Below are positions 46,643-62,384 of a stretch of 64,000 bases of DNA, piece after piece (within the stretch, counting starts at the first letter, position 1; the number at the start of each line of letters is the position of its first letter). The translations under genes and the position numbers were made by a program. Location: the NCBI GenBank assembly GCA_964435595.1, contig CAYSZV010000002.1, positions 39,956 through 103,955 on the forward strand, written 5' to 3'. This stretch comes from an uncultured Candidatus Izemoplasmatales bacterium. GTDB taxonomy: Bacteria > Bacillota_I > Bacilli_A > Izemoplasmatales > Izemoplasmataceae. The notes under the pieces are model-generated. The model ran no database searches. It worked only from the letters and a program-made list of their open reading frames with translations, and had not been told where the DNA came from.

Positions 46643-47407
46643 TTATTCAAACTTAGTTAGTGCTTGAAAATAATAGCTACTAATCGAATGACTCTGACCA
46701 TAATCAATCATTCTTCCTTGTTTATCAAACACATAATTTGTTGATTGCAAACTCGCTGCATTCACACTTTCATTTAAAAGTATAGCATTCTCTTTTGTAA
46801 GATTAACGATTTTTGTCGTTCTCTTTGAGATATGGGCTTTGAATCCATAATGCTCTCCAATATAGTTGTTTAGCGGTTCTGTTCCAATGAATTTTTTATC
46901 TAAGTCTTTGAATATATGCAATGGTAAATAGTTTTCCAAGATAATTATTGGACGATTACTTCCAAAATAAATACGGTTAATATACAGATAATCCTTTTTT
47001 TCGTTTGGTTCAAATCCCATGCTAATTGCTTCTTCATCTTCTAGCACTACCACTTTCTTTTCTAAGCACTTGATTGATGGTTCAAGACCCAATTCGATAA
47101 TCGCATCGTAAATAGAAGTGTTTCGTTCGAAGAAATAATTTGTAAGTTCAATATAAGAAACAAGATAATTATGGTTCTCTTTTTTGATATAGTTTTCATT
47201 CGCTAATAGGTTATATGCAGTACTTACTAGTTTCTCTGAAATCTTTAAATGTTTACTCAAAGATTTTACTGTTGGCAATATAGAGTTGTAATAGAATGTT
47301 TGATTTAAAATCAGAGCTTTGATGTTTTCTTTGATTTGGATAGAATAATTAACACGACTTCTTCTATCAATAGTAATCGTATTTTGATTAATCAATTGCA
47401 TGTACAA
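46643..47407 (-). CDS. GntR/HutC-like regulator paralogue with degenerate winged-HTH
   Basis: 254 aa. The HTH region LPTVKSLSKHLKISEKLVSTAYNLLANENYIKKENHNYLVS lacks the usual GxGTFV wing. The C-terminal half is UTRA-like. Confidence 0.6.
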   Translation of the reverse strand: MYMQLINQNTITIDRRSRVNYSIQIKENIKALILNQTFYYNSILPTVKSLSKHLKISEKLVSTAYNLLANENYIKKENHNYLVSYIELTNYFFERNTSIYDAIIELGLEPSIKCLEKKVVVLEDEEAISMGFEPNEKKDYLYINRIYFGSNRPIIILENYLPLHIFKDLDKKFIGTEPLNNYIGEHYGFKAHISKRTTKIVNLTKENAILLNESVNAASLQSTNYVFDKQGRMIDYGQSHSISSYYFQALTKFE

Positions 47408-48116
47408 TCACCTCGAATTCTGTAAATTCACCTGGGTAATAATTAATCAAATATCCAATCACTTCATCCATCTCATTTGTTATCTGAATCTTTAGCAAAT
47501 AGACAGCATCATTCGGATTAATATTTAACAGCAAAGCATTTGCTGAGCTTGCATTATAGGCACTAAATGTTGTATGTATATGTTTTACTTTTATATTATA
47601 TTGTTCTATCAAATCATAAATATTTTTAAATTCTTCAATATTTTCTTCAAACTTTGGAAAGAATTTTTCTGGTAGATATGCTTGTTGTAACAGTCTAGGA
47701 TTATTGTCTTTACAAAATACTGATCCTACTAAAAGATACTTTTCTTCATCATCTAAATTCAACACGCGCATAACACTGTATTCTTTATTCGATTTCCCAA
47801 GTAAGAATGTATTTTTAGTTACCAAATCGTCTTTTTCGAGTTCAAAATGATTGTGAAAATTCGTTCTAAAGGTTGTCCTATTTGTCACATATGTTCCCTT
47901 ACCCTTAATGCGCTTAATAAGGCCATTATTGATAAGTGTTTCATATCCTTTTTTTACTGCTGTTTGACTAATAGAGAACATCTCACAAATTTCTTTTTCT
48001 GTTGGAAGTTTATCATTATACATTAAGATTCCAGACTCAATAGCTTTTGTTATTGAGTCTGCGATTTGCTTGTATATTGATTTTGTTATTAATTTATTTA
48101 TGACAATATAATCCAT
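47388..48116 (-). CDS. GntR family transcriptional regulator, HutC subfamily (UTRA effector domain)
   Basis: LPTEKEICEMFSISQTAVKKGYETLINNGLIKRIKGKGTYV is a canonical GntR wHTH. Confidence 0.85.
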   Translation of the reverse strand: MDYIVINKLITKSIYKQIADSITKAIESGILMYNDKLPTEKEICEMFSISQTAVKKGYETLINNGLIKRIKGKGTYVTNRTTFRTNFHNHFELEKDDLVTKNTFLLGKSNKEYSVMRVLNLDDEEKYLLVGSVFCKDNNPRLLQQAYLPEKFFPKFEENIEEFKNIYDLIEQYNIKVKHIHTTFSAYNASSANALLLNINPNDAVYLLKIQITNEMDEVIGYLINYYPGEFTEFEVIVHAID

Positions 48117-48134
48117 ACTATCACCTCTATAAAA

Positions 48135-49025
48135 CTAGTCTTTTGCTACACCCAATTCCTCAAGTAGTGTACCAACTAATCTTGGTCTTTCTGCTACTAG
48201 TGCACCAACACCAGTTAATGCTTTGATTTTATCTTCAACAGAGCCTTTACCCCCGGTTACAATTGCACCAGCATGCCCCATTTTTTGACCTTTAGGTGCA
48301 GTTCGTCCACCCAAGAAGGCTACCAATGGTTTCGTGAAGATTCCTTGTTCAATCGCATCAGCAACTTCTTCTTCCATTGTACCACCTAACTCACCAATTA
48401 TAACAACAGCTTTTGTTTCTTTATCATTTTCATATAATGGTAAGAACTCAGCAAATCGTGTTCCTGGTACTGGATCTCCCCCAATACCAATCAATGTTGA
48501 TACGCCATATCCTGCCTCTACAACCATTGATGTTACTTCATTTGTCAACGATCCACTTCTAGTCATAATACCAATACTACCTTTTTTATATACTCGTTCA
48601 ATCCAATACGGTAAACTACCCATCATTGCTAGTTCCGGACTAATCACACCCGATGTATTTCCACCAACAACTGTTGCGCCATGTTCTTTAGCTGCTTGAC
48701 GAATTCGAATCATATCATGCAATGGAATTCCATCAGCAATCGTTACTATTTTTTTTATGCCTGCATCTAGCGCTTCCATTACTGCATCGAATGTTAATCT
48801 TGGTGGTACAAACAACATTGATGCTTCAATATTATGAAGTGAAACTGCCTTTTTCACGCTATTATAAACAGGCTTTCCTGCGACAACTTGACCTTCTTTT
48901 CCAGGAGTCACTCCACACACTACATCTGTACCCAATTCTATCATATGCTGTGTCCAAAAGCTTCCTTCTTTTCCAGTAATTCCTTGTACACACACTGTTG
49001 TAGTTCGATTTATAAATATGCTCAT
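48135..49025 (-). CDS. succinyl-CoA synthetase alpha-like subunit of an ADP-forming acyl-CoA ligase (candidate sulfoacetate-CoA ligase subunit)
   Basis: A CoA-binding N-terminus (VQGITGKEG) and the phosphohistidine loop MGHAGAIV. The substrate is inferred from context only. Confidence 0.8.
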   Translation of the reverse strand: MSIFINRTTTVCVQGITGKEGSFWTQHMIELGTDVVCGVTPGKEGQVVAGKPVYNSVKKAVSLHNIEASMLFVPPRLTFDAVMEALDAGIKKIVTIADGIPLHDMIRIRQAAKEHGATVVGGNTSGVISPELAMMGSLPYWIERVYKKGSIGIMTRSGSLTNEVTSMVVEAGYGVSTLIGIGGDPVPGTRFAEFLPLYENDKETKAVVIIGELGGTMEEEVADAIEQGIFTKPLVAFLGGRTAPKGQKMGHAGAIVTGGKGSVEDKIKALTGVGALVAERPRLVGTLLEELGVAKD

Positions 49026-49027
49026 AT

Positions 49028-50146
49028 CTAGACTCCTTTTGCAATTGAAACAGCTTTTCTAACTGCTTCTTCTGTATCAAAGATAGGTTCAAGCCCAGCA
49101 GCTTTCAATGTTTCAACAGCTTCTGCTTCATTTGTCCCACGAATACAAGTAATAATTGGTCGATTAGGTTTCAATTTTGTAATGGCATCAACAATTCCTT
49201 TTGCCATGACATCTGCTCTCGCAATTGTTCCAAATGTAACAATTAAAATTACTTTCGAAGGTACTTTTAAACATATTTCCATTGATTCCAGTGCTTTTTT
49301 GTAGTTTGGTCCACCAAATTCAAGATAATTCGCAATCGTTCCACCTTCATAATGAATTAAATCATATACTGTCGTTGTCAACCCTGCTCCCGCACACATA
49401 AGTCCAATATCTCCATCAAATTGGATAAATGGAATTCCTTCTTGTGCTGCATCATATTCTGCTTCCGTTTTATAATCCGCAAGTTGTTTTTCGTATCTTG
49501 TTTGACGGAACATTGAATTATCATCAATCATTAATTTCCCATCACCTGCTACAACAGAATTATCAGCTGTAACAAATAACGGGTTGATTTCAACCAATTC
49601 AGCATCATATTTATTAAAGATATGGTATAACTTCAAAAATACAGTTCTTAATTGTTTCGCTATTGGCACATCTAGACCCAATCCAAACGCTACTCTTGAA
49701 GCTTGGTAAGGTAATAATCCGTATCGTAAATCGAAAGGTTCTTTTACAATTTTTTCCGGATGATTGACTGCTAAATCTTCAATATCTACTCCACCTTCAA
49801 CGCTTACCATTAACAGACCAGTTGCATGAACTGGATCAACTGTAATTGCACAGTAAATTTCTTGCTTAATATCAACAGCTTCTTCAATCAACAAACTCCT
49901 AATATTCAATTCATGCTCAAATAGTCTTTTGCTTTCTTTCAGCGCTTCTTGTTCCGTTTTTGTAAACACAACTAATCCAGCTTTGCCACGTCCACCACTT
50001 AATACTTGTGATTTGACAACGCAAGGTGTGCCAACAATCTCTAAGGCAGCTTTTGTTTCTTCATACGATGTGATTAATTCACTATTAGGAATAACAATTC
50101 CAGTTTCTTTAAATACTTCTTTTGCTTGATATTCAAATAATTTCAT
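49028..50146 (-). CDS. succinyl-CoA synthetase beta-like ATP-grasp subunit (candidate sulfoacetate-CoA ligase subunit)
   Basis: MKLFEYQAKEVF...VVKSQVLSGGRGKAG is the SucC ATP-grasp signature. At 372 aa it is slightly shorter than canonical SucC. Confidence 0.8.
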   Translation of the reverse strand: MKLFEYQAKEVFKETGIVIPNSELITSYEETKAALEIVGTPCVVKSQVLSGGRGKAGLVVFTKTEQEALKESKRLFEHELNIRSLLIEEAVDIKQEIYCAITVDPVHATGLLMVSVEGGVDIEDLAVNHPEKIVKEPFDLRYGLLPYQASRVAFGLGLDVPIAKQLRTVFLKLYHIFNKYDAELVEINPLFVTADNSVVAGDGKLMIDDNSMFRQTRYEKQLADYKTEAEYDAAQEGIPFIQFDGDIGLMCAGAGLTTTVYDLIHYEGGTIANYLEFGGPNYKKALESMEICLKVPSKVILIVTFGTIARADVMAKGIVDAITKLKPNRPIITCIRGTNEAEAVETLKAAGLEPIFDTEEAVRKAVSIAKGV

Positions 50147-50156
50147 AATACTTCAC

Positions 50157-51557
50157 CTACTTGAATTTCTTGAAATAATCACCAAAAATATCTTCATCCG
50201 TTGGACGCCAATTTGGTAATAATCCACTAACCCAAGTGATATTTAAGAAATGTTTAAAACTAATATTCTCAGTTGTAATATTACCTCCCCAACTACCACA
50301 TCCAAGAGATACAGTTGATGGCATTCCATTAAAGAACGCTCCACCATTCGCTGCTGCTTGAGGTTGGTTCACTACAATACGACTTGACTTCATATTCAAT
50401 CCTAAATGATCAATATACTCTTCTTTGAATGTATGAATACCACAAGAATGTCCAGTACCGTTATTATCAGTTAAGCGAACCAATATCTCGTAGCCTTCTT
50501 TGAATGTATTGTATTTGAAAATCGTCATAACTGGAGAAAGTTTTTCTTTACTAAAGAAGTCTGCTTCAATATTAGAAGCTCCTTCAACTAAGAGTACCTT
50601 AGTATTTTTTGGTACAGATATACCAGCATCACGAGCAATTACTTCTGCACTTCTTGCTACAATACCTGGATTGATTCCACGGTATCCTTTTTTATTCACT
50701 TTCCACATATGTTCTTCTAATAACTGTCTTTCTTGATTACTTACCATATAGCAACCAAGTAATTCAAATTCTTTTATCATATCACCATATACTGATTCTT
50801 GAATAATAACTGAATTTTCACTTGAACAAGACGTTGCATAATCAAATGATTTCGAAGCAAAAATTTTCTTTGCAGCATCGCTTGGAACGGCATCTTCAGC
50901 TACAATTTGGACTGAGTTACCCGGTCCAACTCCATATGCTGGTGTCCCACTTGAATAAGCTGCCCTTACCATTGCACTACCACCAGTAGCTAACACAACA
51001 TCAACTTGTTGCATTAGCTCATTGGTAGCAGAAATAGAAGGTTGTTCAATTATTAGTATTAAATCAGTTGGTGCTCCAACTTTTTCTAATCCTTTTCTCA
51101 TAAAGTCAACTGCCATTTTCGAACAATTCTTGGCTTTCGGATGAGGTGCAAAAATAACTGCATTTCTTCCCTTGACTATTGTTATCGCATTACTCGATGG
51201 TGTAGCTGTTGGATTTGTTACAGGAGTAAGTGCTCCGACAACGCCAACAGGCTTTGCAAATTTCTTAATGTTCTTCGTTTCATCAAACTCGACCAAGCCA
51301 ACGCTTTTCGCACCTTTGATATCCGCCAACACACCCAATACTTTATTCTTATGTTTTTTAATTTTATCTTCAACATTTCCCATTTCAGTTTCAGCAACAG
51401 CTGCTTCTGCTAATTGTTTAATGTTTTCATCATTGTAAACTTCCCAACCAATCGCGATACACACTTCATCAATTTGTTCTTGCGTATAATCTGCAATTTT
51501 TGCTTGGGCAATGCGTGCTCTCTCCACAAGAGAAGCAATCATATCTTTACTTTCCAT
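50157..51557 (-). CDS. CoA-acylating aldehyde dehydrogenase (EutE/PduP/Clostridium SucD family; candidate sulfoacetaldehyde dehydrogenase)
   Basis: 466 aa with TNPTATP, GGSAMV and the catalytic Cys context ATSCSSENS. There is no C-terminal ADH domain. Confidence 0.8.
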   Translation of the reverse strand: MESKDMIASLVERARIAQAKIADYTQEQIDEVCIAIGWEVYNDENIKQLAEAAVAETEMGNVEDKIKKHKNKVLGVLADIKGAKSVGLVEFDETKNIKKFAKPVGVVGALTPVTNPTATPSSNAITIVKGRNAVIFAPHPKAKNCSKMAVDFMRKGLEKVGAPTDLILIIEQPSISATNELMQQVDVVLATGGSAMVRAAYSSGTPAYGVGPGNSVQIVAEDAVPSDAAKKIFASKSFDYATSCSSENSVIIQESVYGDMIKEFELLGCYMVSNQERQLLEEHMWKVNKKGYRGINPGIVARSAEVIARDAGISVPKNTKVLLVEGASNIEADFFSKEKLSPVMTIFKYNTFKEGYEILVRLTDNNGTGHSCGIHTFKEEYIDHLGLNMKSSRIVVNQPQAAANGGAFFNGMPSTVSLGCGSWGGNITTENISFKHFLNITWVSGLLPNWRPTDEDIFGDYFKKFK

Positions 51558-51569
51558 CTTTTTCTCCTT

Positions 51570-52811
51570 TTATCCTAATAATCCTAACCCTGCAACGACT
51601 CCTAAAAATAGAGCGATAAAGGCTAGGGAACTAAATGCTACGATAAACAAATTCTTAAACAACGCTTTTTTATCTACTGTTTTAGGTGAACTAGCTAATG
51701 CCAATGCACCCATAGTAGAAAATGGTGACATCGTTACGATATGTGATGCAACTGCTATTGAAATTGTCAAGACAGTTGGTGATACAACATTTCCTAATTC
51801 TGTTGACAGTCCAACTGTTGTTGGGATAAGTGTCGGCATTACAACACCGACAGCACTAGAAAATATTGACATTACACCTGCTAAGATTGACATAATAGGA
51901 ACTGCAGTATATTCATTCATTAAACTTGCTAAGAAGTTAGAAATCAGTTCTACTCCTCCAACTTCATTTACAACACTAATCAAAACAGCTGTCCCACAAA
52001 TAAGCAGCAATGTAGACCATGGTATATTGAGAATTGCTTCATTTTGATCTGCTGCTCCAATCAATAGTAGTAATACTGAAAATACGATTGCAGCAAATCC
52101 AACATTTATGCCTCCAACAATTACCCAAATGACCAATAAGAATATCGATACTAAGGTAATGATTTGATACTTATCAAATCTACCTGCTGACTCAATTTCA
52201 ACACGATCTCCTCTTAGTTTTAATCCACCTAATACCAAAAATACAATTGCACTGAACGTCGTCATAGAAATAACATTCATTATATAAATAGAGTATCCCA
52301 AATCTCCAACACCATTTGTCATCGCTAAATCTAAAGCAACAATTCCATTAGGTGCCAAAGGTGATAAACCTCCTGCAATACTCCCAGTTATAATCAATGT
52401 CGACATCATCAGCACTGAAATTCTTGTTTTATAAGCTATGACCAATCCAATTGGTAATAACAAGGCACTTGTAGAAATGTTTCCAGGGCCAACTGATGCA
52501 ATAATCAACGCTAAAAAATAGAAGATAATTGGAATGAGTACTTTTCTACCTTTGCTCTGATATATGATAAATTTCGATATTTTTTCCAAGGTTCCATTTA
52601 ATTTTGCAATACTAAACAACAATGTAATTCCTACTGTTGTAAAGAATAACTTAATCGGCCAATAAGAGATAATCGTATTGATCGGAATACCTCCTAGGTA
52701 ATATCCAATGATCAACGAGAACACCAAAGCGATAAGTCCTACATTAATGTTTTTCCAAAACCCTAATATAATTGCAACTACAAGTGAAAGTAATGAGAGT
52801 ATGGCTACCAT
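51570..52811 (-). CDS. ion-transporter superfamily anion permease (CitMHS/ArsB-NhaD-like); candidate sulfoacetate exporter
   Basis: 413 aa with ~11-12 TM segments and an internal two-fold repeat. The family call is approximate and the role is inferred from context. Confidence 0.6.
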   Translation of the reverse strand: MVAILSLLSLVVAIILGFWKNINVGLIALVFSLIIGYYLGGIPINTIISYWPIKLFFTTVGITLLFSIAKLNGTLEKISKFIIYQSKGRKVLIPIIFYFLALIIASVGPGNISTSALLLPIGLVIAYKTRISVLMMSTLIITGSIAGGLSPLAPNGIVALDLAMTNGVGDLGYSIYIMNVISMTTFSAIVFLVLGGLKLRGDRVEIESAGRFDKYQIITLVSIFLLVIWVIVGGINVGFAAIVFSVLLLLIGAADQNEAILNIPWSTLLLICGTAVLISVVNEVGGVELISNFLASLMNEYTAVPIMSILAGVMSIFSSAVGVVMPTLIPTTVGLSTELGNVVSPTVLTISIAVASHIVTMSPFSTMGALALASSPKTVDKKALFKNLFIVAFSSLAFIALFLGVVAGLGLLG

Positions 52812-52829
52812 AATTGCACCTCTCTATTA

Positions 52830-53309
52830 CTACTTATTAAAACTATTTTTTTCGATTTCGCGAACGATAGTTCTAGCTTTTACTAAATTGGCAGCACGCC
52901 AATCTTCTAAGTTTTGTGTGAATTCAGTTTCTAAAAATAGTTTTGCCATTTCAACTCCAACGATAGGTGCGATAATCCATCCACCCATACAAAGTACATT
53001 TGCATCGTTTATTGCACGACATTTTTCAGCAGAAAATGTTGTTTCGCATGCAGCTGCATGTACACCTTCATGCTTATTGGCAACGATACTCATACCCATA
53101 CCAGTTCCACAAATCAAAATACCTCTTTCATAGGTACCTGCTTGAAATGCTTTTGCACCTTTTTCAGCGACTTCAAAGAAAGGCAATGCTTTATCTGGAT
53201 CAAGAGTTCCAATATCATCGAAATCATAATTGTTTTCTTTTAAATATGTTTTAATTGCTTCTTTTAAATTGAATCCTGATTTATCAGATCCTAAAAATAA
53301 TTTTCCCAT
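52830..53309 (-). CDS. RpiB/LacA/LacB family sugar-phosphate isomerase (candidate sulfo-erythrose/erythrulose isomerase)
   Basis: 159 aa with GSDKSGF...ILICGTGMGMSIVANK, typical of RpiB. Confidence 0.82.
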   Translation of the reverse strand: MGKLFLGSDKSGFNLKEAIKTYLKENNYDFDDIGTLDPDKALPFFEVAEKGAKAFQAGTYERGILICGTGMGMSIVANKHEGVHAAACETTFSAEKCRAINDANVLCMGGWIIAPIVGVEMAKLFLETEFTQNLEDWRAANLVKARTIVREIEKNSFNK

Positions 53310-53324
53310 TGTTTTACCTCTTTC

Positions 53325-54265
53325 TTACTTTCTATCTAGTACACGCAAACATGCTTCAACTATGTCTGATGCCATTAAATTATATCGTTTTTGCAAATAA
53401 TCTTGTTGACCTACTTCACCAAATTGGTCTTTGACACCAACGCGCTCCATTGGAACGGGATAATTTTCTACTAAAACCTCTGCTACAGCACTTCCAAGAC
53501 CATTTATAATATTATGGTTTTCAGCTGTGACAATCGCACCAGTTTTCTTTGCTTCATTAATGACAGTTTGCACATCCAACGGTTTGACAGTATGAATATT
53601 AACCAAACTTGCGCTAATCCCTTTATCAGCTAATAGTTTCACTGCTTCCATTGCTTCAACAACCATGATTCCAGTTGCAAAGATTGTAACATCTGTTCCA
53701 TCATTGATTGGTGTTGCTTTTCCCAATTCAAATTCTTGGTCTAAATCAAACACATCAGCATTATATTTACGTGCTAAACGTATATATAATGGTCCCTTGT
53801 GTTCCATAATTTTTGGAAACATATTGTGAAGTTGCACTCCATCCACAGGTTCGAAAATAGTCATAGTAGGAATGTTTCTCATAATACCTACATCTTCAAA
53901 AGACATATGTGTTCCACCATTTAATTGTGCCAAATCCCAGGATCTGATCCTACCATTTTAACGTTTAATCTTGAATATGCTACACTCAACATCACTTGAT
54001 CAAATACACGTCTTGTTGCAAATGGTGTAAAAGAATGTGTAAATGGGATTTTACCCATATTAGATAATCCAGCTGCTACACCAATCATATTTGCTTCTGC
54101 AACACCAACATTGATTGTTCTTTCAGGAAACTCAGCTGTGAATTTCTTTGTTCCAAGTGCAGTTGATAAATCTGCTTCAACAATTACTAAGTTATCATTT
54201 TTTCTTGCATTTTCGATTAATAGATTTGTATATATATCTCTCATGTTATCTGTTTTTAAATTCAT
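53325..54265 (-). pseudogene. transketolase C-terminal (Pyr + C domain) subunit, interrupted by a 1-nt frameshift
   Basis: The ORFs 53921-54265 (...VGVAEANMIGVAAGL...VGSDPGI) and 53325-53933 (AQLNGGTHMSFEDVGIMRNIP...) are contiguous halves. The frames switch at GGGATTTGG (+ 53931-53939). One extra T would give DPGILAQLNGGTH. Confidence 0.85.
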
Positions 54266-55077
54266 TTTTGTAACCTCGCAATCGCTTCTTTGACTTGTTC
54301 TTTTGTCACTGGCATATTATGAGAACTTAATTTACCCTCACAGAAATATGCACCTTTTCCTTTAATTGTATTTAAAATAATCATCGATGGTTTCCCTTTT
54401 TCTTCTTTTGCCGCATCGATTGCTTCAGAAATTGCAATAACATCATGTCCATCAACTACTTGCACATGCCAATTGAAAGCTTCCCATTTTTTATCAAGCG
54501 GAGAAACACCATTAATATCTTTTGTAAATCCATCGATTTGCAACTTATTAAAATCAGTAAATGCAATGATTGTGTCTAATTTAGAAGTTCCTGCAAACAT
54601 TGCTGCTTCCCAAATTTGACCTTCTTGGCTTTCACCATCTCCAATAATCGCATATACATAGTTTTCTTTGTGATCCATTTTTAATGCTGTTGCCATACCA
54701 ACTGCTGCACTAAATCCTTGTCCTAAAGACCCAGTTGTCATATCAATCCCAGTTGTTTGATTCATATCAGTATGTGATGGTAATTTTGTTCCAGGAAGAT
54801 TTAACGTATTTAATAATTCCTTATCAAAATATCCTTTTAATGCTAATACTGCATATACTGCAGGTCCACCATGACCTTTTGACAATACAAATCGATCTCT
54901 ACTTGGTAGGGATGGATTTTGTGGATCAATATTCATTTGATCGAAATACAATACTGCCAATGCATCACAAATTGATAGACTGCCCCCAACATGTCCAATT
55001 CCTAATGTTCCAATACATTCTAATGTGTTAATGCGAATCTCTTTCGCTTTTTGTTCTAAATGTGCTCTTTTGTCCAT
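54262..55077 (-). CDS. transketolase N-terminal (ThDP-binding PP domain) subunit
   Basis: 271 aa with GHVGGSLS, SKGHGGPA and GDGESQEGQIWEA (the ThDP GDG motif). It is a split-type transketolase. Confidence 0.9.
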   Translation of the reverse strand: MDKRAHLEQKAKEIRINTLECIGTLGIGHVGGSLSICDALAVLYFDQMNIDPQNPSLPSRDRFVLSKGHGGPAVYAVLALKGYFDKELLNTLNLPGTKLPSHTDMNQTTGIDMTTGSLGQGFSAAVGMATALKMDHKENYVYAIIGDGESQEGQIWEAAMFAGTSKLDTIIAFTDFNKLQIDGFTKDINGVSPLDKKWEAFNWHVQVVDGHDVIAISEAIDAAKEEKGKPSMIILNTIKGKGAYFCEGKLSSHNMPVTKEQVKEAIARLQK

Positions 55078-55085
55078 GTTTCCTC

Positions 55086-56426
55086 CTAATATTTACATAT
55101 CTCAATATTTAAGATATTTCCTAGTATTTCTAATTCTTCACTAATGTCTTTGTATACAACTACAAAGTGAGGTTCCCACCCATCTGTGACCATTTCACTA
55201 ATAAGTTGATTGGTATCTCTTGGAACTTGAACAACAACTGAAGTTCCAGAAAACTGCTTCGGTTTATCTAATATTTCACCATTCAAGATAAAAAATCTAA
55301 ACTCACCATTCGGCTTACGCCCAATTCGAAAAATTGTTGCTTGTTTTGCAGGTCTTAATCCAAATTCCATTGTTGGTCCAATCTTACGATTTGGATGTAC
55401 TCCTGTTGCTGCGCCTGTATCTCTTCTAGCTAAAGAACATGCCCCAGCACCACAATGCCAAAATGTAATTGTATTTTCTGTTTCATCTAAGGAAACAGGA
55501 TCTCCCAAATATGTTGGTAACCCGCTAAATTTATTCCCAACATACATTGATAATGCTCCATATGCATCCGCTTCACAAGCTGCTGCAATACCGTCATCAT
55601 TTAACATTCCTAATACACCACAAACTGGTGTCCCATAATCTGTGAAGAAGTCTGGCCAACAACGTGAAGCAATTGCTTTTATATTGTTTTGATCAATATA
55701 GGTTTTGTAGACATTGTATAATTTATAAAAATCTACTCGATTCTTTTTCTTAGTATCTCTAATTCTAACCATACGTGAATCAGCACTTTCTTGTGTTTCT
55801 TTGATTTCCTCTTCGCTTAGTTTTTTTGCCATATTCGTCAATTCTCTAGATTCAACACTTAAGACATTTACCCCAAATGTTTTTGCCATATCTAAGTCGA
55901 GTGCTCGACCAAAGCCGAACCCTTCTGGAGTATGTCCAATCATCAGTAAATTGATATTAGACATATCATATTTCAATTTAGCAGCCTTGATAATCTTGCT
56001 TAACTTTTGTTCAATTATTTCTTCTGTCGGAGAACCAAACATGTACAATAGGTTGTTGTCACACATTTGTTTAAAGGCATTCCCTGCAGAAAATGCTCCT
56101 GTTAATGAATTTAGTCTCAAACGACCTCCGTCAATGACAGGTTCTCTTAAAGTCCATAGTAGAAATTGAGCATTTAATCTTTTAAAAATTTCAGTAGCAA
56201 AAGCCGCATTAGCAAAAGTAATATTTTGAACGATTACCAAATCCGGATTCTTCCCTTCTAAAAACTCTCTTAAAAGATTAATCGATAGAATCATTTCATC
56301 TGGTACAATAACGTCTGGCTCAATTGATCTAATTAATTTTATTGATGCATCGAATTCTCTTTGTGCAGATTCCAAATGGAATGTAGGAACTCCAATTGGG
56401 CAATAAATAACTTCAAACTTTTTCAT
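55086..56426 (-). CDS. L-fucose/L-arabinose isomerase-like family protein, function unknown
   Basis: 446 aa with an N-terminal Rossmann-like swivel (VIYCPIGVPTFHL...) and a C-terminal CEADAYGA / WHCGAG region like FucI/AraA-family proteins. The assignment is by eye. Confidence 0.6.
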   Translation of the reverse strand: MKKFEVIYCPIGVPTFHLESAQREFDASIKLIRSIEPDVIVPDEMILSINLLREFLEGKNPDLVIVQNITFANAAFATEIFKRLNAQFLLWTLREPVIDGGRLRLNSLTGAFSAGNAFKQMCDNNLLYMFGSPTEEIIEQKLSKIIKAAKLKYDMSNINLLMIGHTPEGFGFGRALDLDMAKTFGVNVLSVESRELTNMAKKLSEEEIKETQESADSRMVRIRDTKKKNRVDFYKLYNVYKTYIDQNNIKAIASRCWPDFFTDYGTPVCGVLGMLNDDGIAAACEADAYGALSMYVGNKFSGLPTYLGDPVSLDETENTITFWHCGAGACSLARRDTGAATGVHPNRKIGPTMEFGLRPAKQATIFRIGRKPNGEFRFFILNGEILDKPKQFSGTSVVVQVPRDTNQLISEMVTDGWEPHFVVVYKDISEELEILGNILNIEICKY

Positions 56427-56493
56427 ATAATCACCTTTTTATTTTTCTTGTTTTATCCGCTTCTCTATGGTCTCTTTAGATAAACACTATTGC

Positions 56494-56538
56494 ATAAAAA
56501 TCCGACCAATAGGACCCTTGTAGGGCACCTATTGGTCG
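56494..56538 (-). terminator. intra-operon stem-loop/attenuating terminator after the binding-protein gene
   Basis: Minus strand CGACCAATAGG-N14-CCTATTGGTCG (11-bp perfect stem with an inner CCCT/AGGG pairing) followed by GAUUUUUAU. Confidence 0.65.
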
Positions 56539-56550
56539 AATAATTTATTT

Positions 56551-57765
56551 CTACTCAGTAGGCGCTGCCGCTTTTAAATCTGTTTCTAATTGTGTAAGTA
56601 ATTCTAATGCTGTCATAGTATTCGCTGGGTCTGCACAATCAGCCGCGAAATCATTGATAATTGGATACATACCTGGAATCATAACTTGTGCTAGCCAGTC
56701 TTGTACATACATTTCATCTGTGTTTGCAATTTCATCTAAGAATACTGCGTATTCATCTGCGAAATCACCATATTCAACTGTTGCACCTAATCTAGGAGTT
56801 AAGTAAGGAACCCCACCAGTAAATGCGTCATGTTGTGCTCCTTCAGACATCCAAGCGATAAAATCAGTTGCTTCTGTTTCAGCTCCTGAACCACTAAATG
56901 CTGCTAATGATTTTCCACCTAAGATTGTCGCACGATTTGCTCCTTCAGGCATTGGTACTACTGCCCAATCAAACGCTGTAATATCTTGGTATCCACTTAC
57001 ATTCCAGTTTCCTGAAATATGGAATCCATATTCACCAGTTTTGAATAAGTTTGCTGCATTTGATCCTGCATATGGTTCAGCTGCAAATAATCCACTGTCA
57101 TAGAATCCCATAACCATTTCAACCACGTCAACTGCTGCTTGAGAAGTTAAGTTAGAACTAGTGTAAGGTGTATCCCAAATTTGCACTCCACCTTGATACA
57201 ATAAAGGCATCATTCTGTGTGCTTTTGGATCGATTAAACCTGGAGAAGCTACTCCAGTTACACCTTGTAATTTAGTCATTTCTGTTTCGAATTCATCCCA
57301 AGTCCATACATCTTCACCAGGTGCTGGATAATCAACTGAATTTGCATCTAGTAATGTTGTATTAACAAACATACCATTTGCAGTAATGTCCATTGGTAAA
57401 GAGATTACTTCACCATCATTGTTGTAGAATAAATTTGTAAATCCTGAAGTTGTGTAAACATCATCAAGAGGCTCAATATTGTCTTTGAAGTTATTCAAAT
57501 GACCTTCTGTTACACGAGCCAAAGCTGGAGCTTCTCCACCACTAATCATCGTAGCAAGTCTAGTTTCATAGTCATCATATGGAATTGTAACCAATTCAAT
57601 AACTACACCAGTTTCTTCTTCATAATCATCTAATAATGTTTGCATAACATCACCCTCTGTACCATCACTCCACCATAACATTTGTAGAGTTTCAGTTCCG
57701 CCACCACAGGCAGATAAAGCGAATACGCTTAGAACTAAAAGTAAACCTAAAGCTAATTTTTTCAT
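56551..57765 (-). CDS. ABC transporter substrate-binding lipoprotein (CUT1 sugar family); candidate SQ or SQ-glycerol binding protein
   Basis: Lipobox FALSAC, ~400 aa, acidic and Trp/Tyr-rich like family-1 sugar SBPs. The ATG at 57765 has a GGAGGA RBS. Confidence 0.82.
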   Translation of the reverse strand: MKKLALGLLLVLSVFALSACGGGTETLQMLWWSDGTEGDVMQTLLDDYEEETGVVIELVTIPYDDYETRLATMISGGEAPALARVTEGHLNNFKDNIEPLDDVYTTSGFTNLFYNNDGEVISLPMDITANGMFVNTTLLDANSVDYPAPGEDVWTWDEFETEMTKLQGVTGVASPGLIDPKAHRMMPLLYQGGVQIWDTPYTSSNLTSQAAVDVVEMVMGFYDSGLFAAEPYAGSNAANLFKTGEYGFHISGNWNVSGYQDITAFDWAVVPMPEGANRATILGGKSLAAFSGSGAETEATDFIAWMSEGAQHDAFTGGVPYLTPRLGATVEYGDFADEYAVFLDEIANTDEMYVQDWLAQVMIPGMYPIINDFAADCADPANTMTALELLTQLETDLKAAAPTE

Positions 57766-57823
57766 AAATTCCTCCATTTTATTTTTTTGTTTATGTTAAA
57801 TCCTGTTTCTTAAACAGTAATTT

Positions 57824-58639
57824 TTAACCCTTCATTCCAGTTTGAACCGTTCCTTGTACAAATTGTTTTTGGAAAATCAAGAAAATGATTAACATTGGAA
57901 CCATCGAGATAGCTGACATTGCTAAAATTGAGCTATAATCTGAGCCATACTCTCCCGAGAAGTTCGCAATTGCAAGTTGTAAAGTATACTTGTCTGGTGA
58001 ACTGATCGCAATCAGTGGCCAAACATAATCATTCCATCTCCACATAAATGAGAAGATTGCCAACGTAGCGATAGCTGGCTTTGCATTTGGTAAAATGATA
58101 AATATGAATATTCTTAGTTCAGATGCTCCATCAATACGAGCTGACTCAATGATTTCATCTGGTATGGTAACAAGATATTGTCTCATTAAGAAGATACCTG
58201 TTGGTGTTGCTGCAGCAGGAATAATCAATGCTGCCAACGTATCATACATTCCGAATGTTTTTAAAACACTGAATATCGGAACCATAATTACTTCAAGTGG
58301 TAACATAATTGTTGATAGAATAATCATCATAATAATGGTCGCACCCTTAAATTTGAATTTTGCCAGGGCGTATCCACTCATTGTATTGATTACGACTGCA
58401 AGGAAAGTTGATGTTGTCGCAACAACTAAAGAGTTGATGATATATCGGAAAAAGTCACCTCTGCTTAAAGCATATACGTAATTCTCGATTGTAAATTTTC
58501 TTGGAAAGAATGTTGGAACTGCGGTAAATAAGTCGTTTGATGTTTTAAATGACGATAAAATGATATAAAGTACAGGTGTTAAGAAAACCAGTACAATTGA
58601 TAAAGCAAGAATGTATTGAAATGTTAGTTTTCCTTTCAT
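57824..58639 (-). CDS. carbohydrate ABC transporter permease (MalG-like)
   Basis: 271 aa with 6 TM segments and an EAA loop (ESARIDGASELRIF). Confidence 0.88.
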   Translation of the reverse strand: MKGKLTFQYILALSIVLVFLTPVLYIILSSFKTSNDLFTAVPTFFPRKFTIENYVYALSRGDFFRYIINSLVVATTSTFLAVVINTMSGYALAKFKFKGATIIMMIILSTIMLPLEVIMVPIFSVLKTFGMYDTLAALIIPAAATPTGIFLMRQYLVTIPDEIIESARIDGASELRIFIFIILPNAKPAIATLAIFSFMWRWNDYVWPLIAISSPDKYTLQLAIANFSGEYGSDYSSILAMSAISMVPMLIIFLIFQKQFVQGTVQTGMKG

Positions 58640-59532
58640 TCGTGGCTTCCTCCTTTGGATAGATAGAAGTTTAATCCTGTAATAATCGTCACAAACAATA
58701 ACATAATAACACTCATTGCACTTGCATATCCTACCTGATAGCTTCTAAATGCCATTTCATAAATATATTGAACAGTAAATTCAGTTGCATCGAATGGTCC
58801 ACCACCAGTTAAAGTAACAACAAGTGGATAGGTTTTAAACACTTCCATGGTGACAAGAATAAATACCATCACCCTTGCTGCTTTCAAAGACGGCCAAGTA
58901 ACATACAAGAAACGTTGCACTCTATTTGCTCCATCCATTCTTGCCGCTTCATATAATGAAACCGGAACACTGAATAAGGCTGCAACAAATATAATCATAT
59001 AATATCCTGCTCGTGACCAAACAATCGCAAACACTACTGCCACCCATGCAAATAATGGATTAGTAAGTGTATCAATTGGATCAAAGCCAAACACTCCTAT
59101 CAGTTGATTAAACATTGATCGATCGGTTGCCAATATCCAGTTCCACATAATCCCTACTACTACAGCCGATATCATAACTGGCCAATAATATGATGCACGG
59201 AATAATCCAACTAATTTTAGAGGTTGAACCAATAATACTCCCAGTGCCAAAGAAACGACAAATACAATTGGGACAGTTACTATAACTAATGAAAAAGTAT
59301 TAATTATTGCAGCGATAAAATCCTCATCTTGGAACAATCTTATATAATTTTCTAACCCAACAAAATCAGGTGTACCGAATGTGAATAAGGTCATATTGGT
59401 AAATGAATAATAAACACCAATCAATGCAGGATAAATAATGAAAATTGAGAATATAAGTAAATTGGGTGTTAAAAAGAGATATGGTATAATCTTTTGTTTC
59501 GCCTTATATACTTTAAACGATTCTTTGCGCAT
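58636..59532 (-). CDS. carbohydrate ABC transporter permease (MalF-like)
   Basis: 298 aa with 6 TM segments and an EAA loop (EAARMDGANRVQRF). Confidence 0.88.
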   Translation of the reverse strand: MRKESFKVYKAKQKIIPYLFLTPNLLIFSIFIIYPALIGVYYSFTNMTLFTFGTPDFVGLENYIRLFQDEDFIAAIINTFSLVIVTVPIVFVVSLALGVLLVQPLKLVGLFRASYYWPVMISAVVVGIMWNWILATDRSMFNQLIGVFGFDPIDTLTNPLFAWVAVVFAIVWSRAGYYMIIFVAALFSVPVSLYEAARMDGANRVQRFLYVTWPSLKAARVMVFILVTMEVFKTYPLVVTLTGGGPFDATEFTVQYIYEMAFRSYQVGYASAMSVIMLLFVTIITGLNFYLSKGGSHE

Positions 59533-61541
59533 TACTCTATTCCTCCATTTCCATATTTATGAGTAATTGTTTGAAACAATTCTCTAAATGGTGAATCTGA
59601 TTTATAGAAAACTGGGGGATATCCAATCATTGCATCTACAGTTATATTCCCACCTTTATATTGTTCTCCAGTCCACAAATGAATCCAATCATCTTGTGGT
59701 AAAAAAACTTCTTTTTGAATTTGATGTTCTGATACAACCGGAACTACAATTATGTCTTTTCCAAACATGTATGAATACTGTATGTCATATAGAACTATTT
59801 CATCTTCATAATGCATGAACAATGGACGTTGTAATGGATATCCTTTGGTTGCTGCTTCGTTATATAATGATGAAATATATGGCTTTAGTTCTTGTCTAAT
59901 TTTAGTCATTCTCGATAGTAGTTGTAATGTCTTACTATCATTATAGAACTGGAAATTTTCAGATGGTCTATTTCCTTCATGGGTTCTCATAATCGAAGAA
60001 AACACACTCATTTCAAGCCAACGTTCAAATAATTCTTTGGATCTGATATTTCCATATAGACTTGTATACCCACCAATATCACTATGGGTAAATGGATTCC
60101 CAATGATTCCAACAGACAATGCTGACGGGATAACAGAAGCAATTCCATCATGCAATTCCCAATTAACACTTTGGTCTCCTGCCCATAATGCAGTAGCGTA
60201 TTTCTGAGATCCAAAATTACCACTTCTCATAAAGTAGAATACTTGCCCAAGCTTACCAGCTTCAACCACTGCTTCATAATTGCATTTTGCCCAAAGTACA
60301 GGCCATTCATTATGCATTATGAGAGCATCTTTTTTATTATATAAAACACAATCAGTTGGTAGGTATTCACCAAAATCTGCCATCCAACCTTTCACGCCCA
60401 AATCAATAATATTTGTTTGAATGATGCTTTTATACCATTCAAATGCCTTTGGATTTGTTAAATCAACAGCTCCACAAAAGAATTCTCCAAAATCTATAAG
60501 ATACACATCTCCTTCTTTATTGAAGACCAAATAATCATTTTCTTTTGCTTCAATAAAGAGTGATTGTTCTTCCAATAAAAACGGACATATATATGTTAGG
60601 AAAGCTACTCCTTTTTTATTCAACTGTTTGATTTGCTCAACCAATCCAGGATATACATCCTCGTTCAATGTCCAATTCCAAAATAGTCTTTTTCCAAATG
60701 TAGTATGTTTATATCCTGCCCAATCTTGACACCAGAGTCCAGATACTTTTACATCAAACTGTTCTGCTAACGCCAAATATTCAAGCACCTTATTCATTCC
60801 ACCTTGAAGACCTAACACAATTCCATCAAGTAAATATTCTGGAAGAACTGGTGTTCTACCAACAAAATCAGTAATATCTTCTACAAGATCCAAATACGTT
60901 TCTTTTGAAGATATGATAATTTCTCTTGGTGTTTCCCAAAAATGCAATTCGTGAAACTCAGGATGTTCAAAATTAAACTCTGAATAGGCATAAGAATCAG
61001 CATGAAGCCAGTACTTTCTAGTAGAAACATATGTTGCCTCAGGGTAATATGTATTGTAATAATCTCCACCTGAACCATCGGCTTTATCGGCATAAAAAGT
61101 AGTTAAGGACGTTTTATCTCTTCCAACACCTGGCTCTGAGGTAAACAAGGGAAAATTTCTACCTCTTAGGTTAAAGTATGAGGCTTGTTCTCCACACCCA
61201 TAGACTTTTTCCTCAGCAGTTGCATATATTCTCATCCAAAATCTATTGATGTAATTATTTGTTGATAGACTGATGTGTAATCTGTCATCTTTTTCAACTA
61301 GTTTTATTTTTAATTTCATATCGCAATGACTAAAGATAATAACATTTCCTTCAATTTGATAAGAATCAAGGCCGATTCTTTCCTCAATAAAGTCTGATAT
61401 GTCAAAGTTACCACGATAATGTTTGATTGTCTCAATTCCACTTCCTACAAAAAATGCAGGATTTTTCTTTCGGTGACTAATAACCAATTTTTCGTTGTGG
61501 AATATATCTACTCCGTTGCTCTTCTCTTTGTAATTAATCAT
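59532..61541 (-). CDS. yihQ: GH31 sulfoquinovosidase (YihQ-like)
   Basis: 669 aa. The motifs are WCQDW...TFGKRLFWNW (+ 60672-60701; the Arg/Trp sulfonate pocket of YihQ-type enzymes), the nucleophile motif KGWMADFGE and the acid/base motif HSDIGGY. Confidence 0.85.
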   Translation of the reverse strand: MINYKEKSNGVDIFHNEKLVISHRKKNPAFFVGSGIETIKHYRGNFDISDFIEERIGLDSYQIEGNVIIFSHCDMKLKIKLVEKDDRLHISLSTNNYINRFWMRIYATAEEKVYGCGEQASYFNLRGRNFPLFTSEPGVGRDKTSLTTFYADKADGSGGDYYNTYYPEATYVSTRKYWLHADSYAYSEFNFEHPEFHELHFWETPREIIISSKETYLDLVEDITDFVGRTPVLPEYLLDGIVLGLQGGMNKVLEYLALAEQFDVKVSGLWCQDWAGYKHTTFGKRLFWNWTLNEDVYPGLVEQIKQLNKKGVAFLTYICPFLLEEQSLFIEAKENDYLVFNKEGDVYLIDFGEFFCGAVDLTNPKAFEWYKSIIQTNIIDLGVKGWMADFGEYLPTDCVLYNKKDALIMHNEWPVLWAKCNYEAVVEAGKLGQVFYFMRSGNFGSQKYATALWAGDQSVNWELHDGIASVIPSALSVGIIGNPFTHSDIGGYTSLYGNIRSKELFERWLEMSVFSSIMRTHEGNRPSENFQFYNDSKTLQLLSRMTKIRQELKPYISSLYNEAATKGYPLQRPLFMHYEDEIVLYDIQYSYMFGKDIIVVPVVSEHQIQKEVFLPQDDWIHLWTGEQYKGGNITVDAMIGYPPVFYKSDSPFRELFQTITHKYGNGGIE

Positions 61542-61552
61542 AATAGACCTCT

Positions 61553-62218
61553 TTAAAATGTAACTTTGTAGTTTTGTCCGGTTATTCCAGGATGGGCACC
61601 TTTATCAATCAATGTCTTATTATCAACATGTGCTAGTAGCCACTTATTTGTTTTAAACAACAATTCGTTTTCTAGTGTTCCTTTATTTTTTGCTGATACA
61701 AATGAAACATTTGTACCTTTCGGTAAAATTACTCCGCATTTAAATCCAGTCTCTATAACTCGACATGGAGAAAAATGCAATACTCCAGCATTAATTTCAA
61801 TTACAGAATTTTTTGGTATATAAAATGCTTCTAATTTACTTGAATCATAAGTGTTATTTTCAATATCACATGAATGACCAAGTAGTAAAACCATTGGAGT
61901 CGCAGCAATATTTACTTCTGATGATTTGTGATACTCTAATGCATTCATATATGAATTGTTTCCATTGACATATCCAAATTGAATTGGGATTTGTCCAAAT
62001 ACATCATCATATGGAGAAACATCCTGTAGTGATAAAAAGAAATCCTCATCATGAGCAATATAGACATTTCCACTTTTCGGAATGTCTAACTTATTTAAAT
62101 ATATAAATGCATCATGGAACAAGTCACTTTGTAAAATTTTACCATATGCTCCGAAGGCTTTATCTGTATAATTCTTTATCTTTATACAAGGATTTTTCTT
62201 TATTAAATTATCAATCAT
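61553..62218 (-). CDS. DUF4867 family cupin-like protein (candidate sulfoquinovose isomerase)
   Basis: 221 aa from ATG 62218 (GGTGGA RBS); the in-frame upstream start at 62278 is less likely. It is the first gene of the locus. The DUF4867 call and the isomerase role are from memory of sulfo-TAL/TK clusters. Confidence 0.6.
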   Translation of the reverse strand: MIDNLIKKNPCIKIKNYTDKAFGAYGKILQSDLFHDAFIYLNKLDIPKSGNVYIAHDEDFFLSLQDVSPYDDVFGQIPIQFGYVNGNNSYMNALEYHKSSEVNIAATPMVLLLGHSCDIENNTYDSSKLEAFYIPKNSVIEINAGVLHFSPCRVIETGFKCGVILPKGTNVSFVSAKNKGTLENELLFKTNKWLLAHVDNKTLIDKGAHPGITGQNYKVTF

Positions 62219-62347
62219 ATTTTCCACCAAAATATGTAACCGCTTTCCTTTAAATGTAAAAAAAATAGATTGCTGCATTTGCTTATAAGGCTCAATAATC
62301 TAAAAGATAATAAACAAAATAATCTATCTAGCATTATTTCTACATTA

Positions 62348-62384
62348 ATTTTATCACTAAAATTTTCTGTTTTCAAGAAAATTT
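62348..62384 (-). promoter_or_regulatory. candidate promoter of the SQ locus overlapped by a 9-bp inverted repeat
   Basis: Minus strand TTGAAA (62371-62376), a 17-nt spacer, then TAAAAT (62348-62353). The palindrome AAATTTTCT-N7-AGAAAATTT (62360-62384) covers the -35 box. The context is AT-rich, so chance cannot be excluded. Confidence 0.4.

Follow-up and report, generated by a model that had tools for sequence, protein, structure and literature searches.

Does a single-strand run of transporter, isomerase, transketolase and CoA-ligase genes in the genome of an uncultured Candidatus Izemoplasmatales bacterium encode a route for the breakdown of sulfoquinovose (SQ), a sulfo-sugar of plants, and if so, which sulfonate would be left at its end? 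The stretch analysed here, referred to as the window, comprises 64,000 nucleotides of contig CAYSZV010000002.1 (positions 39,956 to 103,955 of the forward strand; assembly GCA_964435595.1), and all coordinates are given on it. An earlier reading of the letters (the original prediction) had proposed a sulfoglycolysis locus of the transketolase-dependent (sulfo-TK) type in which sulfoacetaldehyde is oxidised to sulfoacetate with formation of ATP. Family membership, signature residues, gene order and conservation, all observed directly, supported this interpretation together with gene context, and we consider it very probable that the locus is a sulfo-TK operon with an oxidative, ATP-yielding sulfoacetate branch.

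The locus comprises 15 co-directional genes on the minus strand (46643-62278), and the minus-strand placement previously given for every listed gene holds throughout. A total of 17 genes had been announced, with 15 in the accompanying list; between these limits we found 16 minus-strand open reading frames (ORFs) of at least 100 amino acids, the sixteenth arising because the gene for the transketolase C-terminal subunit, sqwH, is cut in two. Junctions had been described as short or overlapping; the longest overlap is 20 nt and the widest gap 46 nt, except for a single 124-nt gap between the gene for the solute-binding protein (SBP) and sqvD. The upstream end had been placed at 62384, which is no gene boundary, since the longest ORF begins at 62278; the true limits are a promoter region (62348-62412) and a bidirectional intrinsic terminator (46598-46630, both strands; AAAAAGCATCGAATCCAATTGGATTCAATGCTTTTT) that closes the locus between convergent genes. 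Upstream of the operon lies an AT-rich spacer of ~770 bp, followed by a divergent PAS-GGDEF-HD gene.

Pfam and NCBIfam assignments were obtained for all 15 genes, and Pfam confirmed every gene family that had been named. In order of transcription, the Pfam families were DUF4867, GH31, two BPD_transp_1 proteins and SBP_bac_1/8 with a lipobox (genes 1-5); weak Fucose_iso_C, Transketolase_N, Transket_pyr then the end of Transket_pyr with Transketolase_C, and LacAB_rpiB (genes 6-9); and MatC_N/CitMHS, Aldedh, ATP-grasp_2 with Ligase_CoA, CoA_binding with Ligase_CoA, and GntR with UTRA twice (genes 10-15). No gene other than sqwH is interrupted by a stop or frameshift, so that the remaining 14 are intact. 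G+C content is 32% across the window, which carries T-box leaders together with housekeeping genes of Firmicute type and uses the standard set of stop codons, since all ORFs are intact under translation table 11.

The GH31 gene (59532-61541, minus strand) is predicted to encode a sulfoquinovosidase of the YihQ/SftG type, judging by Pfam, PDB matches, individual residues and the NCBIfam model NF007746. By inspection the enzyme would be cytoplasmic; no N-terminal signal sequence was seen in this way. Matches to YihQ-like PDB entries ranged from E = 1e-245 to 1e-202 (E. coli YihQ, 5AED, 1e-221; A. tumefaciens YihQ, 5OHS, 1e-202), and outside this group the best GH31 entry reached 1e-43. The protein scored 895 bits with NF007746, the YihQ equivalog model (cut-off 553), and 199 bits with the YicI xylosidase model (cut-off 606). 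Membership of the sulfoquinovosidase clade, as opposed to the alpha-glucosidase or xylosidase clades, had been set beforehand as a test, and by both E-values and NF007746 score the protein falls squarely in the former. As described, the protein contains the motifs FGKRLFWNW, WMADFGE and HSDIGG, and the Arg/Trp pair expected to bind the sulfonate within GKRxxWNW was found as R285 and W288, which align to R301 and W304 of 5AED. In the same alignment, the third sulfonate-binding residue, Y508, corresponds to Y492, the catalytic residues D405 and D472 to D389 (WMADFGE) and D456 (WAGDQS), and the Gln pair Q262 and Q288 to Q246 and Q272.

The FucI-like gene, which the original prediction left unexplained by the pathway, is most probably the gene for the isomerase that converts SQ to sulfofructose, SqvD/SftI (55086-56426, minus strand), a distant member of the FucI family in keeping with the family assignment in the literature (PMC9594981). 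Its sole NCBIfam match was NF048012, "sulfoquinovose isomerase SftI", at 1.7e-124 over positions 3-443 of 443, with a score of 416 bits that lies under the 700-bit equivalog cut-off; the Pfam family PF02952 was matched weakly (25.3 bits, under the cut-off of 29.3), and a PDB sequence search with SqvD found no solved relative. The DUF4867 protein is not the SQ isomerase. It corresponds to SqvB/SftX, a cupin metalloprotein (61553-62278, minus strand; PF16161, 1.7e-63, 214 bits) described as a putative accessory protein (PMC9594981). Its true start is probably 62218, giving 221 amino acids, because this start has a GGTGGA ribosome-binding site, agrees with the 221-residue NCBI version and keeps out of the ORF a conserved cre-like box, which the longer frame would include. 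SqvB matched B. megaterium SqvB (PDB 9GYY) at E ~9e-56, and H97, E101 and H148 (221-residue numbering) align to the metal ligands His99, Glu103 and His150 of that protein, a mapping that uses our own offset between the chain of 9GYY and the numbering of the paper. The authors of the 9GYY structure did not find mutarotase activity and called the function enigmatic.

The transketolase is split into an N-terminal, thiamine diphosphate (ThDP)-binding subunit, SqwG (54262-55077, minus strand; PF00456, 6e-59; GDG...N ThDP motif in the translation), and a C-terminal subunit, SqwH (53325-54265, minus strand; PF02779 and PF02780), as had been claimed. Together they form a predicted sulfofructose transketolase that would transfer ketol units from sulfofructose and sulfoerythrulose to glyceraldehyde-3-phosphate (GAP). 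In the window, sqwH is frameshifted, being split into ORFs 53921-54265 and 53325-53933 by a single-T deletion (T4 to T3) at ~53934-53937 that produces a -1 frameshift inside the conserved active-site motif GSDPGILAQLNGGTHM. The gene is intact, with 313 amino acids, in two Joint Genome Institute (JGI) metagenome contigs (L001 and L002; the loci fetched for comparison are numbered in this way), which match the window at 99.8% identity across 14.1 kb with a single indel, TTTT in place of the window's TTT at ~53934. Hence the statement that the route is complete stands for the species, as represented by these two contigs, and fails for this assembly.

Compared to the C chain of a canonical split transketolase from Carboxydothermus (6YAJ), to which it aligned at E = 1.4e-82, and to human transketolase, SqwH reads GSDPGILAQLNGGTHM where the canonical enzymes read ATHAGLTVGEDGASHQ. 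This difference yields a signature, defined in this analysis, of D108/N116/H120/M121 in SQ-linked transketolases vs H/D/H/Q in 6YAJ. The fetched loci, each recovered via a SqwK or sulfoquinovosidase homologue, encode 47 transketolase C subunits; all 47 have N116, H120 and M121, and 45 have D108. A homologue search with SqwH gave the close Mycoplasmatota clade alone (at least 66% identity), and canonical controls came from an unbiased search of 1.84 billion cluster representatives, in which the D/N/H/M class dominated the top 16 ranks and was found in ~33 of the best 150 clusters (50% identity); the canonical S/A-H-D-H-Q class made up ~50 of the best 150 and first appeared at rank 17. In transketolase structures, the canonical His at the position of residue 108 is a ligand of the substrate phosphate (human His416, E. 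coli His461), and the canonical Asp at position 116 recognises the acceptor's 2-hydroxyl group (human Asp424, E. coli Asp469). SqwH retains both of the Arg residues that bind the phosphate (R9 and R166). The D, N and M substitutions could determine the acceptance of sulfonated over phosphorylated ketoses, and the clade of transketolases that carry them may extend beyond the SQ clusters known so far; we know of no published criterion that corresponds to the signature. A further candidate position, Ser36 to Ala, was dropped because residue 36 varies (A/S/C/P) within the clade.

Adjoining sqwH, in the window as in all related loci, is sqwI (52830-53309, minus strand), which encodes an RpiB/LacAB-family isomerase (PF02502, 1.5e-41, 142 bits; placed by NCBIfam at the level of the RpiB subfamily) that would convert sulfoerythrose to sulfoerythrulose. 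In the literature, this isomerase activity of SqwI is only "proposed" (PMC9594981).

The genes for the sulfoacetate branch follow. The predicted CoA-acylating sulfoacetaldehyde dehydrogenase, SqwD (50157-51557, minus strand), had as its top NCBIfam match the SauS model NF047625 (5.5e-153; 510 bits, under the 600-bit cut-off), and its closest PDB entry was 8CEI, an acylating succinate-semialdehyde dehydrogenase. SqwK (49028-50146, minus strand) is a SucC-like beta subunit with ATP-grasp_2 and Ligase_CoA domains that scored 322 bits with the succinate-CoA ligase beta model, under its 370-bit cut-off; SqwL (48135-49025, minus strand) is the alpha subunit, with CoA_binding and Ligase_CoA domains and the phosphohistidine motif GHAGA (KMGHAGAIV in the translation), and its 325 bits lie under the 336-bit cut-off for succinyl-CoA synthetase. 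By these scores SqwKL is a putative ADP-forming sulfoacetate-CoA ligase distinct from bona fide succinyl-CoA synthetase.

Between sqwI and sqwD lies the gene for a MatC_N/CitMHS anion permease (51570-52811, minus strand; PF07158, 2.7e-29; PF03600, 7.9e-23), a position that it always occupies in Mycoplasmatota-type loci. Sulfoacetate is the sulfonate analogue of malonate, and the original prediction had singled out this permease as an unexplained exporter candidate; the family to which it belongs, that of MatC (a malonate carrier) and CitMHS, suits a malonate-like sulfoacetate, and a role in export remains our inference. In a spirochaete locus (L023), a DASS permease (Na_sulph_symp/CitMHS; 12024-13487) is encoded right after sqwKL, so that anion permeases of the IT superfamily are linked to sulfoacetate-forming genes in two lineages. 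These permeases, MatC/CitMHS in Mycoplasmatota and DASS in spirochaetes, could be dedicated sulfoacetate exporters. Bilophila wadsworthia SauCD was shown to have residual activity with malonate (PMC10413351).

Genes for the sulfoquinovosidase, SqvD, SqwGH, SqwI, SqwD and SqwKL thus stand together in one operon, and each of the genes beyond GH31 has one counterpart in the published sulfo-TK pathway with its SqwD/SqwKL branch. Four papers (PMC9594981, PMC12890257, PMC11659671 and PMC11489063, citing Liu et al. 2021) describe the pathway as running from SQ to sulfofructose (SqvD), then through SqwGH, SqwI and SqwGH again to sulfoacetaldehyde. Three of them (PMC12890257, PMC11659671 and PMC11489063) attribute to Chu et al. 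2023 a variant that lacks SqwF and SqwE, and these secondary descriptions credit the sulfoacetate/ATP chemistry to recombinant enzymes encoded by a metagenome-derived Acholeplasma sp. genome. Neither SqwF (an iron-dependent alcohol dehydrogenase, PF00465) nor SqwE (TauE, PF01925) was found in the locus or in the other window ORFs scanned, and the locus has exactly the composition described for that variant.

With enzyme activities taken from the literature on orthologues, and with the transported substrates, the exporter role, the pairing of regulators with an operator and activity in this organism put forward as predictions, the locus would work as follows. The lipoprotein SBP and two CUT1 permeases would import SQ or sulfoquinovosyl glycerol with the help of an ATPase encoded elsewhere, and the cytoplasmic YihQ-type sulfoquinovosidase would release SQ, which FucI-like SqvD would turn into sulfofructose, perhaps assisted by the cupin SqvB. 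The split ThDP transketolase SqwGH would then move C1-C2 onto glyceraldehyde-3-phosphate, giving xylulose-5-phosphate and sulfoerythrose; RpiB-like SqwI would convert sulfoerythrose to sulfoerythrulose, from which a second round of SqwGH would yield a second xylulose-5-phosphate and sulfoacetaldehyde. SqwD would convert sulfoacetaldehyde, NAD(P)+ and CoA to sulfoacetyl-CoA, SqwKL would use sulfoacetyl-CoA, ADP and Pi to form sulfoacetate, CoA and ATP, and the MatC/CitMHS permease would export the sulfoacetate. Two HutC-type regulators probably act at a conserved palindrome beside the promoter, and a CcpA-type cre box would add catabolite control.

Other readings of the same genes were weighed against this pathway. 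The source annotations (alpha-glucosidase, transketolase, ribose-5-phosphate isomerase B, succinyl-CoA synthetase), and the acylating succinate-semialdehyde dehydrogenase that is the closest PDB relative of SqwD, could describe an ordinary alpha-glucoside and pentose-phosphate locus beside genes for succinate-semialdehyde dehydrogenase and succinyl-CoA synthetase, unrelated to sulfonates. We find this scarcely credible: signature residues and family scores already largely refute it, with the R/W/Y sulfonate triad present, similarity to YihQ 180 orders of magnitude above that to other GH31 classes, SftI and SauS as best family matches, SucC and SucD scores under the cut-offs for true succinyl-CoA synthetases, and a non-canonical transketolase signature common to SQ-linked transketolases. 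Nor do we give any real weight to the idea that the dehydrogenase and ligase are of the HpfX/HpfYZ type and make 3-sulfopropionate from a C3 sulfonate, as that route needs a transaldolase or aldolase, the glycyl-radical dihydroxypropanesulfonate (DHPS) dehydratase HpfG/HpfH and HpfD, none of which is present; the transketolase and RpiB-like isomerase found in their place would yield a C2 sulfonate. A reductive, Bilophila-like direction (SauCD/SauS), in which the permease imports sulfoacetate and the locus also or instead assimilates it, would draw on the 57-68% identity of SqwD, SqwK and SqwL to the B. wadsworthia sauS, sauC and sauD products, which have been characterised as converting sulfoacetate to sulfoacetaldehyde (PMC10413351), and on the reversibility of both reactions. 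We judge it very improbable because the locus and window encode neither TauF, IseG/IseH or Xsc nor any other enzyme for desulfonation or for the consumption of sulfoacetaldehyde; furthermore, the genes share an operon with those for the sulfoquinovosidase, SQ isomerase, transketolase and RpiB-like isomerase, which produce sulfoacetaldehyde, and in such a context the literature gives the oxidative direction (PMC12890257, PMC11659671 and PMC11489063).

The sole serious question about function in this genome is whether the sqwH frameshift is an assembly error or a strain-specific pseudogene. If the pathway has been read correctly and the deletion is a genuine strain-level mutation, the locus would be a decaying, non-functional copy. 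Three T residues in the window vs four in two independent, 99.8%-identical contigs would fit such a mutation, as would the fact that the deletion is the sole indel in the 14.1-kb alignment, from which it follows that the assembly is not generally indel-prone. However, none of the other 14 genes is disrupted, miscounted homopolymers are a classic source of error in consensus calling or assembly, and sqwH is intact in both sister contigs, so that we regard decay as unlikely, albeit as a possibility to be taken seriously. For the sulfo-TK operon with its sulfoacetate branch, the frameshift is also the first of several points on the other side of the balance, since a strain in which the deletion was real could not run the pathway. 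SqvD, SqwD, SqwK and SqwL lie below their NCBIfam equivalog cut-offs and are therefore family members as opposed to proven equivalogs. No ABC ATPase for sugar uptake was found in the locus, as originally remarked, or anywhere in the window, where the single ABC ATPase (28449-29231) adjoins an ABC-2 permease. Function in this organism is predicted from homology and context, and the comparison with the cluster of Chu et al. 2023 was made by way of secondary descriptions.

Conservation of the locus was examined with two probes. The SqwK probe recovered 80 species-representative genome loci, with 87% identity for the best SqwK match. Loci from Mycoplasmatota-type metagenome-assembled genomes (MAGs; L003-L015, L018 and L020) keep the order ABC-sqvD-sqwG-sqwH-sqwI-matC-sqwD-sqwK-sqwL-gntR-gntR at 50-90% identity, and five metagenome contigs recovered with the sulfoquinovosidase probe (L085, L086, L088, L090 and L092) carry the upstream half in the same order with sqvB first. 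Overall, the order sqvB-SQase-perm-perm-SBP-sqvD-sqwG-sqwH-sqwI-matC-sqwD-sqwK was seen in at least 15 genome loci and these 5 metagenome contigs, with sqwL and the two gntR genes counted in it where the contig reaches. Spirochaete loci keep sqwG, sqwH, sqwI, sqwD, sqwK and sqwL together with a more distant FucI-like isomerase; a MatC homologue and the GntR pair were not found in them. The nearest relatives of the locus are in MAGs labelled Izemoplasmatales, Izimaplasma, Mariniplasma, Acholeplasmataceae, Tenericutes and Mycoplasmatota, and the earlier guess of a wall-less-type lineage fits the closest of these (Izemoplasmatales, Acholeplasmataceae and "Tenericutes" MAGs).

The uptake genes encode a UgpA/MalF-like CUT1 ABC permease (58636-59532, minus strand; PF00528, best NCBIfam match UgpA-like), a UgpE/MalG-like CUT1 permease (57824-58639, minus strand; PF00528, best NCBIfam match UgpE-like) and the SBP (56551-57777, minus strand; SBP_bac_8 and SBP_bac_1), whose lipobox LSAC agrees with the lipoprotein nature previously ascribed to it. 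Compared to PDB entries, the SBP gave weak matches to other CUT1 SBPs; from its gene context, it presumably binds SQ or sulfoquinovosyl glycerol. Directly 3' of the SBP gene is a strong hairpin followed by U5 (56495-56540, minus strand; -29.8 kcal/mol, z = -5.8), and equally strong hairpins of other sequence occupy the same position in L003, L085, L086 and L092 (z ~-5), showing conservation by position and not by sequence. Such hairpins are typical of differential expression within ABC operons, and this one is likely a partial terminator or mRNA stabiliser that separates the uptake from the catabolic genes.

At its distal end, the operon carries two GntR/HutC regulator genes. Regulator 1 (47388-48116, minus strand) has a winged helix-turn-helix (HTH) and a UTRA domain (PF00392 and PF07702) and is kept at 48-74% identity in related loci; regulator 2 (46643-47407, minus strand; likely start 47401) has a UTRA domain (6.5e-19) and a degenerate HTH, its GntR domain scoring 25.8 bits vs a cut-off of 27. 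The two are 25% identical to each other by pairwise comparison, and the tandem pair is conserved in L003-L018. At the other end, the likely operon promoter (62348-62376, minus strand) was identified by consensus scan as TTGAAA, a 17-nt spacer and TAAAAT with a TG-extended -10, and the regions upstream of orthologous operons share its TTGAAA -35 box with unchanged spacing. Comparison of these regions also revealed an imperfect 28-bp palindrome, AAGATACATATTTGTATAAAAAAATATT, 8 nt upstream of the -35 box (62385-62412, minus strand), with the consensus AAGATAYATATTT, four variable bases and AAAAAAATATC across orthologues. Within the window the palindrome occurs just once (chance expectation 0.01), and with up to three mismatches it is found in 2.56 Mb of fetched loci only upstream of sqvB (L083, L084:4203, L085:9121, L092:2412 and L093:41); L086 has a length variant. 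A de novo search for palindromes in the AT-rich upstream region gave chance-like matches only, the conserved element having come from orthologue comparison. The palindrome is a candidate operator for the HutC/GntR regulators, an inference from its position and conservation, and the tandem, diverged HutC pair could act on it, perhaps as a heterodimer, layered with CcpA/cre control.

The leader contains a cre-like box, GGAAAGCGGTTACA (62235-62248, minus strand), with one mismatch to TGWAANCGNTNWCA, just before the sqvB ribosome-binding site GGTGGA (62223-62228). Support for this box rests on conservation, with a box at the equivalent place in L084-L087 and L092, because the window-wide match count is only ~2x chance. 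The gene at 22368-23378, adjoining tyrS, is for a CcpA-like LacI regulator (best match TIGR01481, 306 bits, below cut-off) and has a cre-like palindrome upstream of it (23409-23422). The conserved box and this regulator suggest CcpA-type catabolite control in the lineage. A structured leader RNA or attenuator was also considered and rejected, as the fold z was ~0 in four of six orthologues and no Rfam match was found at E <= 1; only a T-run and the cre box are conserved in the operon leader.

Several features of the neighbourhood were recorded. In the spacer that separates the SQ operon from the divergent PAS-GGDEF-HD gene is a free-standing 33-residue ORF (MNYYKTSIDAFRDISIKVDQVTKSIIKTITKVFK; 62649-62750, minus strand), which has its own promoter (62798-62825, 11/12 consensus), a good ribosome-binding site and its own terminator (62595-62619). 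Just downstream of the locus (38778-44963) are genes for a GlpP-type glycerol-3-phosphate antiterminator (44397-44963), a 707-residue alpha/beta-hydrolase (42121-44244) with a cre-like site in front (44290-44303), an HTH_3 regulator and a GH16 enzyme with CBM6/CBM35 (39480-41363). It is speculative that these genes reflect consumption of lipids and glucans from algae or plants, with for example a lipase freeing SQ-glycerol from sulfoquinovosyl diacylglycerol (SQDG). Farther away, a gene for a 670-residue arylsulfotransferase (ASST family; 24036-26048) is inserted between rplS and trmD, T-box leaders (3110-3309 and 22117-22314, minus strand) lie upstream of thrS (1146-3068) and tyrS (20843-22078), and a 1010-residue ORF (30505-33537, plus strand) had no Pfam match at the 1e-5 threshold.

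The particular C2 or C3 sulfonate that SQ degraders excrete decides which secondary degraders are fed, such as sulfite-respiring Bilophila, and the cluster occurs widely, with tight conservation, among MAGs of Izemoplasmatales and Acholeplasmataceae and among spirochaetes. The practical use of the assignments made here is limited to annotation transfer, as source annotations still read "alpha-glucosidase", "succinyl-CoA synthetase" and "hypothetical", to a sequence signature for SQ-type transketolases and to candidates, open to experiment, for the sulfoacetate exporter and the operator of the operon. The transketolase signature, the exporter candidate, the operator with the cre box and the post-SBP hairpin would be incremental additions. 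The pathway itself is nothing new; only tentatively do we suggest that the transketolase signature as a sulfonate determinant, the IT-superfamily exporters and a HutC pair on the palindrome are previously undescribed.

Among known systems, E. coli YihQ (5AED) and the A. tumefaciens enzyme (5OHS) share full-length homology and identical catalytic and sulfonate-binding residues with the window sulfoquinovosidase; the former feeds the sulfo-Embden-Meyerhof-Parnas (sulfo-EMP) pathway and the latter the sulfoquinovose monooxygenase (sulfo-SMO) pathway, whereas the window enzyme would feed sulfo-TK. The sulfofructose transaldolase (sulfo-TAL/SFT) clusters of Firmicutes (SftG, SftI/SqvD, SftX/SqvB and SftT/SqvA; B. 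megaterium, E. rectale) have the sulfoquinovosidase, FucI-like isomerase and DUF4867 protein in common with the window, and in human-gut metagenome contigs (L095-L119) SqvD is ~58% and the sulfoquinovosidase ~52% identical to the window proteins. These clusters cleave the C-C bond with a transaldolase to give a C3 sulfonate (DHPS or sulfolactate), whereas the window locus is without a transaldolase. In B. wadsworthia ATCC 49260 (L069), the counterparts of SqwD, SqwK and SqwL are SauS (58% identical), SauC (57%) and SauD (68%), biochemically characterised enzymes with the same chemistry that run in the opposite direction, from sulfoacetate to sulfoacetaldehyde, isethionate and sulfite, alongside the tripartite tricarboxylate transporter (TTT) importer SauXYZ, TauF and IseGH, with SauS preferring NADP (PMC10413351).

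The closest likenesses are to the sulfo-TK clusters. Clostridium sp. MSTE9 (Liu et al. 2021, ACS Catal 11:14740) has the same upper route from SQ to sulfoacetaldehyde, with two transketolase steps and an RpiB-like isomerase; its cluster encodes SqvD, SqwGH, SqwI, SqwF and SqwE, and the iron-dependent alcohol dehydrogenase SqwF reduces sulfoacetaldehyde to isethionate. In the window locus, by contrast, sulfoacetaldehyde would be oxidised to sulfoacetate with a gain of ATP, and a MatC/CitMHS permease is encoded in place of the TauE-type exporter SqwE. The cluster from an Acholeplasma sp. MAG (Chu et al. 2023, Appl Environ Microbiol 89:e0061723), as secondarily described, has the same enzyme set and logic, namely sulfoquinovosidase, SqvB, SqvD, SqwGH, SqwI, an acylating dehydrogenase and an ADP-forming ligase without SqwF or SqwE, in a host that is the same at phylum level (Tenericutes/Mycoplasmatota). 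Compared to that cluster, the window differs in its frameshifted sqwH. The abstract of the Acholeplasma study reportedly names GenBank QZKD01000037. The sulfoacetate variant of the sulfo-TK system is already known, down to the phylum of its host, and the locus is a further instance of it.

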